Shown here: positions 22,300-33,710 of the stretch, piece by piece | Position numbering within the stretch: position 1 is the stretch's first letter | Layout of the letters: every line of letters begins with the position of its first letter | Origin: an uncultured virus (IMG/VR IMGVR_UViG_3300025030_000088) | Taxonomy: Duplodnaviria > Heunggongvirae > Uroviricota > Caudoviricetes | IMG/VR virus record: IMGVR_UViG_3300025030_000088 | Coordinates: 1-64,000 of that record | Direction: 5' to 3' (one strand) | DNA: 64,000 nt | Program-made: the position numbers and the translations under genes | Notes under the pieces: model-generated | Told to the model about the DNA's origin: nothing | Databases searched by the model: none | What the model saw: only the letters and a program-made list of their open reading frames with translations

Positions 22300-23094
22300 T
22301 TATAATGGTTTATTACTATTTTCTATTTTCCTACTTTTATCATATTCTCTTTTCCACAACTTATTTTGTTCTAATTTATTTATTTTAGCACAATCACTAC
22401 AATATTTATTTTTATTATTTCTCATTATAATTAATCTACAACAATTATTTCCTTCACAAACATCAATTCTATAACCTTTCCAATCTAAATATTCATATAT
22501 AAAATCTATAAAATCAATAATTTCAATAGCAACTTTACCTTCATCTTTTGCAAATAAAACTTTCATATTAGTACATTCAACTTTTCTTGACACCTCTATT
22601 AATTCCATATCTTTTAATTTATTAATCATTAAACCTTGATCTTTTTTACTTATTGCCATTTTTGTATCACTAAAAATATCTTTTAAACTTGAATTAACCC
22701 AATTAGCTTTATTTTTATTCATTTGATTATATATTTTAGAATAAACAAGTAAGACAAAAGCTAATTTTTCTAATCTTAAATTATTAATACTATTTATAAT
22801 TTCTAGTTCATCTTCATATACTAATATATTTATAATATAAAAAAATTCATAATCAGATAAATTACTAACTTGTTTTACAATATTCTCAATGGTATTTTTC
22901 CAATTCATAAAATTATATTTCTTATAATTATTGCTCATAAAATTATCAATAGAATCAATAACTTGTTCCTTATCTTGACCAATCTTAAAAAAATGTTTTG
23001 CTAATAATTTTATTGTGATACTTGGTTTATCATCAACATATCCATCATTTAATGATTTATTTAATAATACTTTTTCATTCAATATTATTTTCAT
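22300..23094 (-). CDS. RNA-polymerase-adjacent protein with C-terminal zinc ribbon
   Basis: ATG after GAGG overlapping the RNAP stop; C-terminal C...C / YCSDC. Confidence 0.6.
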   Translation of the reverse strand: MKIILNEKVLLNKSLNDGYVDDKPSITIKLLAKHFFKIGQDKEQVIDSIDNFMSNNYKKYNFMNWKNTIENIVKQVSNLSDYEFFYIINILVYEDELEIINSINNLRLEKLAFVLLVYSKIYNQMNKNKANWVNSSLKDIFSDTKMAISKKDQGLMINKLKDMELIEVSRKVECTNMKVLFAKDEGKVAIEIIDFIDFIYEYLDWKGYRIDVCEGNNCCRLIIMRNNKNKYCSDCAKINKLEQNKLWKREYDKSRKIENSNKPL

Positions 23095-26000
23095 TAATAT
23101 CCTCCGTAAACATCGAAAATTTATTACCACCAAACTCAATATCACCAAATTTATTTAAAATAGGGTATGATACAATATAATTATTATTTTTTAATAAATT
23201 GTTAATAATTATATCTCCACAAATATCCCATGCAAATTGTTTAGAATTATTATTCTTGTAGCAAATACTAATTACAATATTACATAATTCTTCAGCATTA
23301 CTACATAATTCATATGCTTTTTTCTTAAAAGTATCTTTTAAAATTTGTCTATGTATTTTATTTTCTTCATTATCAATTCTTTTACTTTTTATATTTTGAG
23401 AATATTGTTGTGTTTTTTCAGTATAATCTTGATATAATTTATTAATAGCATTGTATCTACCTTTAGAATATTTACTATTTGTCATTAGTATTGAATAATC
23501 AAAATCATTATTATTAATTATATTATAATTATCAAACTCTTTTTCAATTCTCCAACAAATACGATTCATCACAGATTTACTTATAGATACAGGCATTTTA
23601 ATATAATACCATTTAAGATATTCAATTTGTTCCTCTGTTTTATTTTCTAAACTTATTAACTCATCTATGGTTATACCGAATCTCATAAGACAAGTATTTT
23701 TAGTTTGGTTTATATATCTATCATATACTTTCTTCCTATATGGATATATATAATTAAAAAAATAAGGTTTTTTATTTGCTACAATACTCTTATCAAAATC
23801 ACTAATAGCAGAACGATAATCATACCATTCTTTAGGTATTTTTTTACTAACTATACCTTTAATTTTATCTATCGCATTTTGTTGATAATTTTGCCCACAC
23901 ATAATTCTATTTAATACTTCTTTATATTCTTTACTATCTTCTTTAAATTTTACTAATACATCAAACATTGAAGTGATATGATTTGTTGTTACACCTATAT
24001 CATCTCCAAATCCATCTTTATTTGATTTTATAAAATCTTTTTTCTTAGGAATTATTTTATCTGCTGTTTTTTGCACACAAAATATTGCATCTGTTTCTTT
24101 AATGGAATTAAGTATCGTAGAATTATTAGTTGTAAATACACAATCACTCGATTGTACCCCTGCTTTCGCAGTATTTCAAAAGGGACTAGACTATATCATC
24201 ATCCTTAAAAAATTAAGGAGTCCGGCACTTCGATTTAAGGGAATTTCACCCACTGTATCGCTACAGTCCTACTCCTATTGTGGAATTTCACCACTATTTC
24301 AGGATAGTCGTTTAACGATTATCTTAATAATTATTAAGATTTCGCACAGGATTATCATATGTGTGTTTATTTATATTAATTTAACTAACAAATTTATAAT
24401 AATGTTTTAAATATGATTTATTATTATTAATACTTAGTATTATATTACCTCTTATAGAATCAACTTTTGCTTTTGTAAAATTATTATCCCTTAAATATTC
24501 TGCACAAGCACCTATATATTCAAAAGTATCTATATAATTATTATTAATATCATATAATTGTATTTTTCTTGCTCTGCCATTTTGCTCTTTTGGTCTAGAA
24601 TTATTTAGTTTTGCTAATTCTGGATTATTCATGTATTTTAATTTTAAACTATTATTGTTATAATTTGGATTATTTTCACCTTTCATTCTTCCATCTCTTG
24701 CAATATGTCTATTATGTAAAACTGTATATTTAATATTATATTCATGTGTTTCCCACTCTAAATTATCGACATGATTATTAGTTCTATCAAAATCTTTATG
24801 ATTAACTTCTGGATAATTATTAATATTATTAATAAATAATTTTGCAACCAATCTATGTAATCTTTCAGTTATTCTACAATCATTTTTCCCAACAGTTACA
24901 CAAACATATCCATCTTTATTTAATCTAGTTTTTAATAATTTTCCAGAACTAACTCCTATAATATTACCATAATTACTAACCTCATAATCCAGACCATTTA
25001 TATTAATATTTTTCCAAACTTCTATATTTTATTCCTCCTTGATTATAAACACACACTTAGACTTCCCCTGTTAGCCACATTGTTAAGTAGTCATTTCCTA
25101 CTACAAACAATTAAGTCAATGTGACACCTTGCTCTGCAAGTTCACCGGATTTTTCATATGTTATTACTAACATAAGGGACTGTAATCAATCCTTATCTAA
25201 ACCATTTAAAGCATGAGCAGTAGTATCCCATGAATTAAAAATTGTAATTGTATTCATATATTTATACCATTTTCGCATATCTTCTGTATTCTTCAAATTT
25301 AATATTCTAATATTATTGTGACAAGTCATAGGAGCACGAAAACAAGCAACTTTATCTACATCTAAATCATTCCAATATTTAGAATAAAATTCTCCTTCTT
25401 TTAACAAACCTGTTACTTCCATTCCAAATATATTTTGACATAAACTAAAAATATCACCTGAAACAATAGAGTAATTTGCCTTTGTCTTTAATACACCTAT
25501 CTTAGCATCTTTAATTCTTTTTTTAATCGTATTATGTATTTTATTTTTGACAAAAGAATCATCTATCATTCTTTTATCAATCATTAACGCTTTAATAAAA
25601 TCATTTTCTTCATTATTAAAATTAATTTTATCTAAATGTATACCTTTAAGAAATAATATACTTTTTCTATAATCCTTACTAATAATATCATGTATTTCTT
25701 CTGTCGTTGGTTTAATTAACTGTTCAATACCTTCAGTATTTAAGTATAAAGATTGCAAAAATTGGTAATTTGTATGTCGTTCATTTTCCAATACTTTAGG
25801 TGTATGTTTTGTAATACTAAATGAATATCCATTATTTTTACAACAAGATAGATAATGTTCAAGTGAATCATAAGAATCCCAAAGTTTAAGCATTGAGGTT
25901 GTTAAAATTAATTCTATATTTCTAATGTCTCTATCTTCATTCCAAACATCCTTAACTATATATTTTTTATTTGCTATATTTTTTGCAAAATCTTGGAAAT

Positions 26001-26862
26001 TAAACGAAAAAATCATGCCTTTACAGAAAGAATTACGCAGACAATATCCACTAGGTATAAAATATTCTTTATCTTCTTCATCAATACTTTTATCATTATT
26101 AATTTCTTTTATCCATCTTCTACTTAATTCAGGTGAGATAATACCATACCCATCACTATCATTTAATTCAATAGGATAATCTTTTTCATATACAATATCA
26201 GGATACTCTGATATAGTATCATCTATTTTAATTACATTTGCTTTAAAATTTGTTATACAGTCATTTACAACTAGTATTCCTTTTGGATCTGATACAGGAA
26301 TACTAGAAGAAGTAACTAAAGATTTATATGATTCTAGTTTTGCAGGTATAAAATTATTATTCATATTTCTACCATTATCTATTTTATTTTCTAAATCTTC
26401 ATAAACATTTTCACTAACATAAGTTATTGTATATTTTTTTACTCCTCCAGGAGTGCCTAGTAGATGTTTAAATTTAACACCGTTAATATAAAATCCTTTC
26501 TTACTATTCATTCTATCAAAATCTTTATTGTTATCTATTACTATACAAACATAATCCTTTATCAATAATAAATCATATATTTTATTATATAATGATTTAA
26601 TTTTTCTACGATTATCAATAGAAGTAGGTAGTTTTTTTATCTTGCTTATATCCCTATAAACATTATTAACTTTTTCATATATAGATTTAGTGTTAACTTT
26701 ATTTATAATATCTATAAATCTAATTAATGCACTTTCTGCCAAAGAAACTAATTCATTTTTATCAGATGCTTCATCAATACTAATATTTAAATTCCATTTT
26801 GATTTTCTTAATCTAGTAGAATTAATTTTATATATGTATCTTTGTGGTGGGTAATTTGACAA
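23075..26862 (-). CDS. YonO-like single-subunit DNA-dependent RNA polymerase, spliced: exon 1 26862-25189, exon 2 24148-23075 (~915 aa)
   Basis: DGYG, R....KG, FRAP, LNGLDKD|SD catalytic motif across the splice junction, IG..TN, Q..AID..KG, KPYFF.YIY. Confidence 0.85.
24149..25188 (-). ncRNA. Group I intron (1040 nt) carrying a homing endonuclease ORF
   Basis: 5' exon AUAAGGAU pairs with intron GUCC(C)UUAU (U.G). Terminal G. P10 UGAUUAC/GUGAUUG. P3 UCCGGU/GCCGGA. P7 GACUA/UAGUC (AAACGACUA ... GAUAUAGUCUAG). Confidence 0.9.
24381..25025 (-). CDS. Intron-encoded NUMOD4-HNH homing endonuclease
   Basis: EVWK...YEVSNYG (NUMOD4), HRLVAKLFI, VNHKD..RTNNHVDNLEW (HNH). Probable ATA start after AAGGAGG. 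Confidence 0.85.
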   Translation of the reverse strand: MEVWKNININGLDYEVSNYGNIIGVSSGKLLKTRLNKDGYVCVTVGKNDCRITERLHRLVAKLFINNINNYPEVNHKDFDRTNNHVDNLEWETHEYNIKYTVLHNRHIARDGRMKGENNPNYNNNSLKLKYMNNPELAKLNNSRPKEQNGRARKIQLYDINNNYIDTFEYIGACAEYLRDNNFTKAKVDSIRGNIILSINNNKSYLKHYYKFVS

Positions 26863-30248: not shown

Positions 30249-32231
30249 TTATGTATTTTTATTATTCAATCTTTTCTCTGCAATATCACAATAATCCTTA
30301 TTCATTTCAAATCCTATATGATCAAAACCCGATTCTCGACAAGCAAGAAATGTTGTACCTGAACCTTCAAATGGGTCTAAGCATATACCATTAGGTGGAG
30401 TAACTAATGTGACTAAATATTTAATTAATGATAATGGTTTGACGCATGGATGATTATTTCCTTCACCACGTTCCTTTTTACTTGCTTTAGCACAATACAT
30501 AAAATTAATATAATTTCCTTTTTTCTCTTTGATATTCTCTGTGATATTTATTATTAGATTCTTTGTTGATATATCTCCATTCTCGTAATTTTTCTCTTGA
30601 ACAATTTTTACAATATCCTTGATAACATTCATTTCTTTTATAAAATTCATTAATATTTTTATATTCTCCACAGTGTTGACATTTTCTATATTCAATTCCA
30701 TCAATAATTTTATGATCTTTTCTTGCATCTCCATGTAATTTATTATGTTTATATTTTGATAATAATTCCAAATTTTCAATTCTATCGTCAGATTTGTCAC
30801 TATTAATATGATGCACTTCAAATCCAACAGGAATTTCTCCATAGTTTTGTTCCCATATATATCTTGCTCTACGTTTTGAATAAATTTTTCTATCTCCTGG
30901 ATTACGCCATTTAATGTACCAACGACCTTCAGATTTTCTATAATATTCCCACATATATAATCATCCTCACAATATAATATATTTAAAAAATATCTACTTG
31001 CTCCACCTGTATCACCATGTTGATTTTGTAATGTTGATTTACCTCTTAAAAATCCCGTATTAGATTCTCCTTTATAAGCATCTTTATTTTCTTTTACTTT
31101 TCCACTTTTAGTAATACCACTTTGCAAATCTAATATTTTCCCTGCTTCTTCGTCCATAATTATATTTGCAGGGAATCTACCTTCATTATTAACACATTCT
31201 CTTGCTTGGTTTAATGGTGTACTACCTGTACCATATAAAGTATCTGATGTACCAAATCCTATTGATTTAGAATTCTCAGTAAAGTTACATTTTGCTTTAA
31301 CAATTTTTAAATCTTCTTCTGATTGATATTCAACCCTACAATCATCAATATTAATTCCACCAGTGTTCCATTTTAGAACATTATCTACTATAGTTTTTTC
31401 ACTTAGAGGTTTTCTTGCTACTATAATTGGTTCGTGTGCTGGTTTAAGGGATGTACCGTATCCAGACCATTGCTTTGCTTCTTCTGTTGCTAAATCAAAT
31501 AATTCTTCTGTTTTTGAATTTGATTGTGAACCAACAATTTTAGCAAAATCATTTCCACCACTTCTTTGATGCACAATTTCACCAATCTTTTTACCTTTTT
31601 TGCTAATAAATTGTTCTCTAAAATATGGTTTGTCCTGCAATATTTCTTCTAACAATAAATATCTTTTTTCATTGGGATTTTGAGGACAAGGAGTATTAAT
31701 ACCAATCCAATGATCTATTTGTCTAGGTGTTACATTACAATGTTTTGCAACATCTTTTTTATCTAAATTTAATAATTCCATTCTTTTTAAAATCCATTCA
31801 CCTATATTAACTTTACATCTTCTTTTTTCCATTTCTTTTGAGATATTCATTGATTTGGGAAAACCAGTCGAATAGATCCAGTCAATTTGATCTCTAATTT
31901 CAAATACTGCTAATCTTAAACTTATACACATTAAATCATATGTACGTGTTCCAGCAAAGCATAATAAGTATCCTCCTGGTTTTAATACTCTATATGCTTC
32001 TTTCCATATAGAAGGATTGGGAACAAATGAATCCCATGCGACATTCATAAATCCTTTTGAATTATGTATGTATTCTTCATTGTTTAACCAGTTAGTTAAA
32101 ACCTCTACTATATTTGGCTCTTTAGATAATCCGTAAGGTGGGTCGGTGACAATTGATGATATAGAATTATCTGGTAGTAACTTCATACCTTCTTTACAGT
32201 CTTGATTATAGATTTTATTTAGTTGTAGCAA
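30249..32231 (-). CDS. Beta-class N4C/N6A DNA methyltransferase with an XRE-HTH-like insertion and a 163-codon in-frame insertion
   Basis: VTDPPY (motif IV) near N-terminus; LKPAHEPI; GRFPAN; GGASRYF...YCAKAS; NHPCVKP; LDPFEGSGT (motif I). Confidence 0.9.
   Translation of the reverse strand: MLQLNKIYNQDCKEGMKLLPDNSISSIVTDPPYGLSKEPNIVEVLTNWLNNEEYIHNSKGFMNVAWDSFVPNPSIWKEAYRVLKPGGYLLCFAGTRTYDLMCISLRLAVFEIRDQIDWIYSTGFPKSMNISKEMEKRRCKVNIGEWILKRMELLNLDKKDVAKHCNVTPRQIDHWIGINTPCPQNPNEKRYLLLEEILQDKPYFREQFISKKGKKIGEIVHQRSGGNDFAKIVGSQSNSKTEELFDLATEEAKQWSGYGTSLKPAHEPIIVARKPLSEKTIVDNVLKWNTGGINIDDCRVEYQSEEDLKIVKAKCNFTENSKSIGFGTSDTLYGTGSTPLNQARECVNNEGRFPANIIMDEEAGKILDLQSGITKSGKVKENKDAYKGESNTGFLRGKSTLQNQHGDTGGASRYFLNILYCEDDYICGNIIENLKVVGTLNGVIQEIEKFIQNVEQDIYGNKTMEKFLLDLKCIILIVTNLTIELKIWNYYQNINIINYMEMQEKIIKLLMELNIENVNTVENIKILMNFIKEMNVIKDIVKIVQEKNYENGDISTKNLIINITENIKEKKGNYINFMYCAKASKKERGEGNNHPCVKPLSLIKYLVTLVTPPNGICLDPFEGSGTTFLACRESGFDHIGFEMNKDYCDIAEKRLNNKNT
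30505..30954 (-). CDS. HNH endonuclease nested in an alternative frame of the methyltransferase gene
   Basis: RYIWEQNYGEIP.G.EVHHINSDKSDDRIENLELL...HNKLH (HNH), then KCQHC...EFY...YCKNC zinc ribbon; own RBS GAGGATGA. Confidence 0.85.
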   Translation of the reverse strand: MWEYYRKSEGRWYIKWRNPGDRKIYSKRRARYIWEQNYGEIPVGFEVHHINSDKSDDRIENLELLSKYKHNKLHGDARKDHKIIDGIEYRKCQHCGEYKNINEFYKRNECYQGYCKNCSREKLREWRYINKESNNKYHREYQREKRKLY

Positions 32232-32318: not shown

Positions 32319-33710
32319 TTATCGTATTTGTTCTAATTCTAATAACATTTCTTCGTAATCTTCTTTATACATCCATTTGAATTTACCTGCTGTTTTAGCT
32401 TTGCCACTACAACATAATGATATACCTCTTATATTTAACTCTTTTTCTGCCTTTGTAATACTTTCCCATTCTTTTATAAATTTATTTTCAAGTAATAATT
32501 GAATAACTTTTCTTTTACCTTTATTATAATCACAGAATCCTGATTTAACACCTTTGTTTAAATATGAAACAATAGTAGCATGACATAATTTCATTAATTT
32601 TGCTATTCCTTTTGTACTTTTGATACCATTATTCCAATAATCACATGCGATTTTTACTAAACTCTTATTAGTAAATTCTTCACATTTATTCCAGTCTATT
32701 ATGGATAAATCAAACAAATTATTTAATTGACTATTTAATATATTGGTTTTTATATATTCTAATTCACTTTTTAAACAATCAATTCTTATTACTTCTATAT
32801 TATGCTGATTTATAAATATATCTCTTTGTTTATCATCTTCTTTAGATTCTTCTGCTGTTTTATTAATTAGTGTATTTTTATTCCCGTGACCTATACCGCC
32901 ATCCATTTCAAAATTATACTTTTTATTATTTAATTCAAAATAAAAATCTAATCTATAATTATAAAAATTATGTTCAGGTATAAAGTCAATTCCTAATTGC
33001 TCTAATAAATTAAATCCTACTTTATTAGCAAAAGAAATTCCATCTCCGCATTTTGGACAACTAAAGCCAAATCTAATTATGTTATAAGGAAGATATAATT
33101 TTTCATATCTACAATTAGGACAAACAAATAATTCATAATTATGCTTTCCTTGACTTATTTTATATCCTAATTCTTTATCCTTTAATAATTTTGCAATATG
33201 TGGATGAGTAGTCCAAAGATCGTTATAACCTTTTAAAACTTTCTTTGAGGGAAAACAACAAACATTACAACCTCGTTTACCATCTAATTTACTTTCACTT
33301 ATTTGATCTTCGTTTCCGCATTTTAAACACTTATATTTATAACCTTTTTGCATATCTATTTTACGAGGAATTCTAATTTGTTCTATTATTTCTATTTTAC
33401 TAAATTTGTTTTCTATAATATCGCCAATATTATATTTATAATCTTGAATATGTTTATTTAATAAATTACCCAATCCACAATTAATAAAAACATTAGTAGT
33501 TATACTTACTGTTCTATCATTATATTTAATATCTAAATAATTTTGATATTTTATTTTATAATAATTAACAATTTCTAATTCGTCTTCAATATTATCATAA
33601 ATAAATTTTAATTTGTACCCTACACTATTCTTCCAATCATAACATAATTTATTAATATACATACCTTTACCATATTTCTTAGGTAAATCATCTAAGAAAA
33701 CTTTTCTCAT
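32319..33710 (-). CDS. Free-standing zinc-ribbon endonuclease with NUMOD1
   Basis: CLKC, CNVC, CPNC, CPKC; RLDFYF..EMDGGIGHG; C-terminal NUMOD1. C-terminal half clearly paralogous to 10990-12648. Confidence 0.75.
   Translation of the reverse strand: MRKVFLDDLPKKYGKGMYINKLCYDWKNSVGYKLKFIYDNIEDELEIVNYYKIKYQNYLDIKYNDRTVSITTNVFINCGLGNLLNKHIQDYKYNIGDIIENKFSKIEIIEQIRIPRKIDMQKGYKYKCLKCGNEDQISESKLDGKRGCNVCCFPSKKVLKGYNDLWTTHPHIAKLLKDKELGYKISQGKHNYELFVCPNCRYEKLYLPYNIIRFGFSCPKCGDGISFANKVGFNLLEQLGIDFIPEHNFYNYRLDFYFELNNKKYNFEMDGGIGHGNKNTLINKTAEESKEDDKQRDIFINQHNIEVIRIDCLKSELEYIKTNILNSQLNNLFDLSIIDWNKCEEFTNKSLVKIACDYWNNGIKSTKGIAKLMKLCHATIVSYLNKGVKSGFCDYNKGKRKVIQLLLENKFIKEWESITKAEKELNIRGISLCCSGKAKTAGKFKWMYKEDYEEMLLELEQIR

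Follow-up and report, generated by a model that had tools for sequence, protein, structure and literature searches.

The closest described counterpart of the locus analyzed here is the ShiLan element, an HNH endonuclease gene located in frame 3 of an actinophage methylase gene, the host frame of which is open (Genes 2025, PMC11855218). That report, which is in silico only, describes neither an intron nor an intein nor a ribosome binding site, and proposes leaderless starts (PMC11855218). The element is patchily spread (Genes 2023, PMC9957025). As far as these sources go, elements of this kind have so far been documented in one in silico paper and about ten phages, with no experiment. Nucleases encoded in frame 3 have also been reported inside inteins, which remove the passenger (bioRxiv 10.1101/2025.01.02.630785). 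Free-standing HNH genes that split other genes, as described for mobE in nrdA and for MobA with T4 gene 60, likewise sit within a host gene that has neither an intron nor an intein, the host ORF being broken or the ribosome hopping. Finally, phage HNH endonucleases often ride in group I introns, as do those of the I-HmuI type.

The window analyzed here, a stretch of 64,000 nucleotides from an uncultured virus (IMG/VR record IMGVR_UViG_3300025030_000088, positions 1 to 64,000), is part of a 71.6-kb contig that resembles an AT-rich phage and encodes an RdRP-like single-subunit polymerase and several HNH endonucleases. Metagenomes carrying matching DNA come from groundwater, sediment, and soil, and no RNA data set was listed among them. 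The methyltransferase gene of the window contains an insertion that is absent from homologues and is filled by a zinc-finger HNH ORF in frame 3, the host frame remaining open, as in the ShiLan case (PMC11855218). The two loci also share, within the published description of ShiLan, a common N6/N4 methylase family (E 3e-19 for the alignment between ShiLan gp65 and the window enzyme), the lack of an intron or intein, a patchy distribution, and a predicted helical loop away from the core. The window element is not the ShiLan domain itself. The ShiLan site, a KPxxEPxxxARKP motif, corresponds to residue ~265 of the window enzyme, whereas the window insert lies ~150 residues later; the HNH proteins share just 31% identity over the core and comprise 149 residues in the window versus 195 in ShiLan. 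In addition, the window phage is AT-rich, with a Shine-Dalgarno (SD) sequence in the window copy and an internal sigma70-like promoter in many relatives.

Comparison with the intein-borne nucleases, as these are described (bioRxiv 10.1101/2025.01.02.630785), reveals the same location in frame 3 of an open host frame, but no splicing domain flanks the window HNH. The likeness to mobE and MobA, as far as the accounts of them go, is limited to the presence of an HNH gene within another gene in the absence of an intron or intein; the window host ORF is continuous. As in the I-HmuI type and in an intron of the window polymerase gene (see below), an HNH_3 family nuclease resides in a conserved phage gene; the RNA core and the host-frame stops of the polymerase intron are both missing from the methyltransferase insert.

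Judged by its sequence, the window element is of a kind already described in 2025 (PMC11855218), and its site and HNH lineage are new. The family to which it belongs forms a separate lineage at a new site, with at least 21 diverged copies available as DNA and, at a threshold of 50% identity, 109 clusters of the host frame. In the literature searched, drawn mostly from outside subscription journals and including the main text of PMC11855218, neither this site nor the purging of stops nor an internal promoter was the subject of any paper. Within that literature, the comparative tests reported here of stop purging, nuclease-frame constraint, charge bias of the passenger, and internal promoter and SD are the first, and the latter two signals speak to the question, raised in the available text of PMC11855218, of how such nucleases are expressed.

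Organization of the nested genes

The initial annotation had described a complete HNH gene, with its own SD, nested off-frame in a methyltransferase gene. The family matches and the SD-like motif bear out both statements (Table 1). The HNH ATG starts on the third base of a host codon, which places the nuclease in frame 3 relative to the methyltransferase, and the HNH protein contains two CxxC pairs. The catalytic DPPY motif and the SAM-binding motif are encoded on opposite sides of the insert. A working beta-class methyltransferase requires both the DPPY half and the SAM-binding half. The DPFEGSGT motif was found in frame downstream of the insert in all 19 hosts examined, and can be reached only by read-through or removal of the insert. 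The initial annotation gave the length of the insert as 489 nt, which holds relative to the minimal GGASRFF-YCAKAS allele; relative to the closest HNH-less alleles (loci L166-L169), the window has 447 nt, or 149 codons, in place of two codons of a short linker.

Table 1. Coordinates of the methyltransferase locus and of the polymerase gene in the window.
Feature	Position	Strand	Evidence or remark
RdRP-like single-subunit RNA polymerase gene	23075-26862	-	insert ~24100-25190 in D-x-D-x-D-like motif
N6/N4 (beta-class order) DNA methyltransferase ORF, 660 aa	30249..32231	-	PF01555, E 1.3e-30; TTG start behind AAGGAGG SD
DPPY motif, N end of methyltransferase, upstream of insert	32133..32144	-	motif in sequence
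DPFEGSGT SAM-binding motif, C end of methyltransferase, downstream of insert	30354..30377	-	motif in sequence
Nested HNH_3 endonuclease ORF, C-terminal zinc ribbon, 149 aa	30505..30954	-	PF13392, E 1.3e-15; frame 3 versus methyltransferase
Minimal insert, 447 nt = 149 host codons	30510..30956	-	versus closest HNH-less alleles, which have two codons there
Insert versus minimal GGASRFF-YCAKAS allele, 489 nt = 163 host codons	30498..30986	-	limits of the initial annotation
Leader within host frame, holds HNH SD	30957..30986	-	TTGACn-17-TATAAT promoter absent in window copy
SD-like GAGGATG of HNH	30962..30968	-	AGGA core 9 nt before ATG; putative function
Second variable methyltransferase segment, in frame, ~residues 136-250	31482..31826	-	helical; HTH-like by eye; outside nested element

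The second variable segment of the methyltransferase is common to an HNH-less allele (P0030) and gave no family match. Directly upstream from the methyltransferase, an ORF of 463 codons (32319-33710, minus strand) encodes zinc ribbons and gave a weak homing-endonuclease match (phrog_4538); it is missing or diverged in some syntenic relatives. Across the contig, no further long same-strand overlap with a known family was detected, and three other overlaps of 95-109 codons were listed. Annotated phages contained no close relative of the nested HNH and no record spanning 80% of the methyltransferase.

The AlphaFold model of the methyltransferase (85 sequences, pTM 0.53) has a confident catalytic core (blocks at 78-98), with the insert predicted as four moderately confident helices carried by linkers that score below 50, and the adjoining YCAKAS region at low confidence. 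The predicted helices of the insert may reflect covariation from the other frame. The HNH model gave no fold match with E up to 0.001. Searches of the PDB by sequence and with Foldseek returned only weak Cas8-HNH and zinc-finger matches, which were not retained.

Stop codons and constraint in the two frames

Between the GGASRYF and YCAKAS motifs, positions 30498-30986 contain no stop in the methyltransferase frame, in agreement with the 163 open codons of the initial annotation, and the remaining third frame contains 29 stops across the HNH span. With the HNH protein fixed and codon use taken from 33 other ORFs of the window, 5.3 host-frame stops were expected, and the probability of finding none was 6.3e-4. 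Shuffling the real codons of the HNH gene gave a similar value (4.5e-4). The initial annotation had called such openness very unlikely by chance. It is indeed far from chance, but the methyltransferase-frame offset is the easier one to keep open, and the odds are therefore less extreme than this wording conveys.

Relatives were fetched through the HNH frame, so as not to collect open cases only. The host frame was stop-free in all 27 loci obtained in this way (53-100% identity), a set that includes some duplicates and two copies cut by contig ends. Openness of the host frame in every insert-bearing allele had been proposed as a check of the initial annotation, and it held in each of these loci. 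Their third frame contained 14-29 stops, except for L116, which was cut at 37 codons, and L096, in which 4 codons were counted. Among all 161 loci, the host frame was open in 31 of the 31 close ones, duplicates included, whereas distant HNH genes located away from methyltransferase genes had 6.1 stops per 100 codons in the same offset, over 8351 codons. For the 21 elements that remained after removal of four near-duplicates and the two cut copies, the expected number of host-frame stops was 3.9-7.5 per element. Since the elements are of one origin, counts across them are not independent; at 64% protein identity, there has been ample time for stops to arise. The leader was found in 12 different lengths (29-92 nt) in the 20 loci parsed out of 23, and the frame was kept in all of them. 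In L096, an early TAG kills the HNH and the host frame is still open; recoding of this TAG was considered and rejected, as TAG ends the host ORF of the same locus. Taken together, these comparisons indicate that the nested arrangement is real and well beyond chance. The T TTT TTA run preceding the HNH was considered as a -1 frameshift site, but a methyltransferase-HNH fusion was rejected, since the shifted ribosome would meet two TGA stops before the ATG.

Constraint was analyzed in 132 gap-free columns of the alignment of the 21 elements. Divergence at positions 1, 2, and 3 of the HNH codons was 0.29, 0.21, and 0.36, respectively. Protein identity was 64% in the HNH frame versus 50% in the host frame, with the former value exceeding the latter in 209 of 210 pairs, and pN/pS was 0.43 versus 0.82. 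As the initial annotation had anticipated, constraint is thus located in the HNH frame rather than in the host frame. Among ~130 columns, 35 were invariant in the HNH, including the His/Asn and the four Cys, as compared with 11 in the host frame. Of the 14 changes that separate the window copy from L006, 7 are silent and 7 replacing when read in the HNH frame, whereas all 14 are replacing in the host frame. One pair provides a counter-example: L007 and L098 reveal no constraint in the HNH frame (pN 0.052, pS 0.047), the HNH of L098 being shortened.

The host frame is not entirely unconstrained, as the composition of its peptide was biased. Relative to 60 free-standing HNHs of equal GC, silent choices in the nested HNH genes favored host-frame Glu (10.6% versus 5.2%) and avoided Arg (1.6% versus 4.9%) and Pro. 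The net charge of the peptide was under expectation, that is less basic, in all 19 elements, and the trend was the same with a background drawn from host exons. In the window, the charge was -4 versus +4.9 expected, a value reached in none of 300 draws, while the HNH proteins are basic (+7 to +22). In terms of helix propensity, the passenger had a lower cost in 17 of 19 elements, without significance in any single one. The low-charge bias fits a translated passenger, yet it could be one inherited accident.

Distribution, expression signals, and proposed propagation

Among 88 homologous proteins, 61 had the minimal GGASRFF-YCAKAS junction, 17 had a linker of 12-17 residues, and 10 had a long insert. 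Both insert-less and insert-bearing alleles, the existence of which the initial annotation had made a point to verify, were therefore found, and the syntenic close relatives L166-L169 carry the linker and no HNH, with 85-94% identity over the 240 nt past the site. In DNA run X7, one contig has such an HNH-less allele, joining position 30510 to position 30992 with 40 other letters, beside contigs that match the insert, although this is weak evidence, provided by a single contig with a 23-letter side. In a tree of 101 hosts, built after excision of the inserts, HNH-less linker alleles surround the window copy, and the starred branches force at least five changes. An AU test rejected a single clade of insert-bearing hosts (p 2.9e-14) with 16 insert-bearing and 24 HNH-less hosts, the latter picked after the tree had been seen. 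The distribution on the methylase tree is disjunct, subject to this choice of rows, to long branches and within-gene recombination, and to gains being indistinguishable from losses. A lost element could have left the short linker of the closest HNH-less alleles as its remnant.

Several loci indicate that this methyltransferase family is an insertion hot spot. In L202 (2424-2933), an unrelated ORF encoding zinc-finger repeats, HNH-like by eye and without a nuclease family match, is found at the site of the window element and in its frame. Second off-frame nuclease ORFs were found in the same methyltransferase gene in L100 (2182-2649), L106 (653-1243), L008 (424-1080), and L116 (847-1689). The first three gave HNH_3 matches, and those of L008 and L116 sit inside an intein at the YGC site. 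In L007 (1613-4063), two free HNH-type genes divide the methyltransferase into three ORFs, the middle one of which still bears the nested HNH with an open host frame. A profile search with the host-frame peptide, which detects open cases only, retrieved 109 clusters at 50% identity; 103 of these resemble this methyltransferase family, and some are located at a second site after YCAKAS. In another methylase class, a C5 cytosine methylase (L039, 1701-3764) contains an off-frame nested HNH_3 ORF of 213 codons with no intein match and is, on these features, the same kind of element.

Two other arrangements were observed. In L095 (131-2074), the methyltransferase is rearranged, with the segment ending in GGASRYF ahead of the DPPY half and the HNH located after the ARKP motif, reflecting either a permutation or a misassembly. 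Off-frame HNH ORFs were also present within intein-like segments of phage proteins, terminases among them (L009, L010, L034, L110, and L115), in both alternate frames, with Hint matches in four of these five loci.

A sigma70-like motif (TTGACn-17-TATAAT) with at most two mismatches was found in the host codons preceding the HNH in 10 of 22 loci versus 1.9% of shuffles. The motif is perfect in L103 and L164 and aligns at one place across elements. An SD-like word of at least 4 bases is located ahead of the HNH ATG in 11 of 23 loci, a count made without a control. In the leader of the window copy, the best promoter match has 4 mismatches and is equalled by 84% of shuffles; a scan of the window region detected 16 sites versus 16.1 expected, none of them in the leader on the coding strand. 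Having an SD and no promoter, the window copy would thus express its HNH from the methyltransferase mRNA.

We consider it likely that the insert is a splicing-independent homing HNH of the ShiLan kind, translated in the host frame as a passenger loop. In this view, a selfish gene for a homing endonuclease would have settled in a variable methyltransferase loop that separates the DPPY half from the SAM-binding half. Ribosomes translating the host gene would continue through the insert, producing a 660-residue enzyme that would be active despite a passenger segment of ~150 residues, and other ribosomes would start at the internal SD and ATG to produce the 149-residue HNH. In many relatives, HNH expression would be driven by the promoter that the leader conceals. 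In a mixed infection, the HNH would cut or nick an HNH-less allele near the site and the element would be copied in by recombination. The initial annotation had offered a dual-coding homing element in a tolerant loop or ribosomal bypassing as interpretations. The former passed the sequence tests (27 of 27 host frames open, constraint in the HNH frame, HNH-less alleles), and the latter is not supported (see below). If read-through and homing were confirmed at the bench, splicing-free homing would join introns and inteins as a third common route, and gene callers would appear to hide such nucleases within long methyltransferase calls.

Alternative fates and roles of the insert

Read-through followed by removal or clipping of the loop in the protein, either by non-intein processing or by proteolysis with the halves staying together, agrees with all the stop data. 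The methyltransferase family also tolerates being in pieces, as illustrated by the three ORFs of L007 and by ShiLan gp65, which ends after the motif. We nevertheless regard this alternative as unlikely, since the host-frame peptide displays no intein motif and no family match and its ends vary between elements. Autocatalysis is unlikely because the peptide is nearly unconstrained. In agreement with the initial annotation, the insert was not recognized as an intein: the Hint domain, the N-terminal Cys/Ser, the C-terminal His-Asn, and the +1 Cys/Ser/Thr were not found, and the same search did detect real Hint domains in other loci.

It is improbable that selection maintains the host-frame peptide as a second product, in the form of an acidic helical segment shielding the enzyme or binding and restraining the basic HNH. 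If this were true, the same bases would specify both a nuclease and an inhibitor of it, and the host codons would conceal the nuclease promoter. Retention of the two genes for the benefit of the phage, as a nested restriction-modification or toxin-antitoxin pair in which the methyltransferase or the acidic peptide protects against the HNH, would account for nuclease and methyltransferase being physically inseparable and for the neutral to acidic peptide facing a basic HNH. This possibility appears very improbable, as one HNH lineage is found in very divergent methyltransferases that do not form one clade, close syntenic relatives live without the HNH, other nucleases occupy the same and neighboring sites, and all 14 changes that the peptide underwent between close copies are replacing, none of them silent.

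An unrecognized intron, removed from the RNA so that the open frame would be incidental, is highly unlikely. Group I introns are common carriers of HNH genes, and Rfam can miss odd introns, but the HNH fills the insert and leaves no room for a ribozyme core. Rfam gave no match at gathering score in the window and none in 20 related loci; a snoRNA match over the insert was rejected as due to chance (E 0.85, opposite strand). The insert RNA folded worse than 100 of 100 shuffles, and the consensus fold of 18 elements was weak, with any double change in only 3 of 25 pairs. The conserved RNA core and fixed splice sites of group I and group II introns were not found: around the supposed 3' junction, the position of the HNH stop varies between 44 nt beyond and 49 nt ahead of the host Tyr codon, and in 7 of 21 elements it falls inside the host motif. 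The claim of the initial annotation that no intron is present is supported. The same genome provides a contrast case in the polymerase gene, the insert of which is a probable group I intron. This insert has a full-length match to RF00028 (24167-24408, E 0.0027, below gathering) and carries an HNH_3 ORF. Unlike the methyltransferase insert, it is full of stops, one directly after the exon and many more further on.

In T4 gene 60, bypass is reported to require a stop or hungry codon after take-off and a take-off stem-loop, and to span a 50-nt gap with no early landing codons (bioRxiv 10.1101/2022.08.31.505936). Ribosomal bypass from one Phe codon to a matching one ~490 nt on is scarcely credible for the methyltransferase insert: TTT codons do flank it, as the initial annotation had noted, and a Phe or Tyr-Phe run lies near both ends in many relatives, but the flanking codons are not conserved, three more in-frame Phe codons lie between them in place of a unique landing codon, no stop follows the take-off codon, no repeat or stem-loop is conserved, the ends are variable, and no purging of stops would be expected in a sequence that the ribosome skips. 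The TATTGTG repeat that had been pointed out at the two ends of the insert is present (30968-30974 and 30491-30497), but this word occurs 18 times in the window and lies at both ends in only two of 19 elements, namely in the window copy and in the nearest relative of it.
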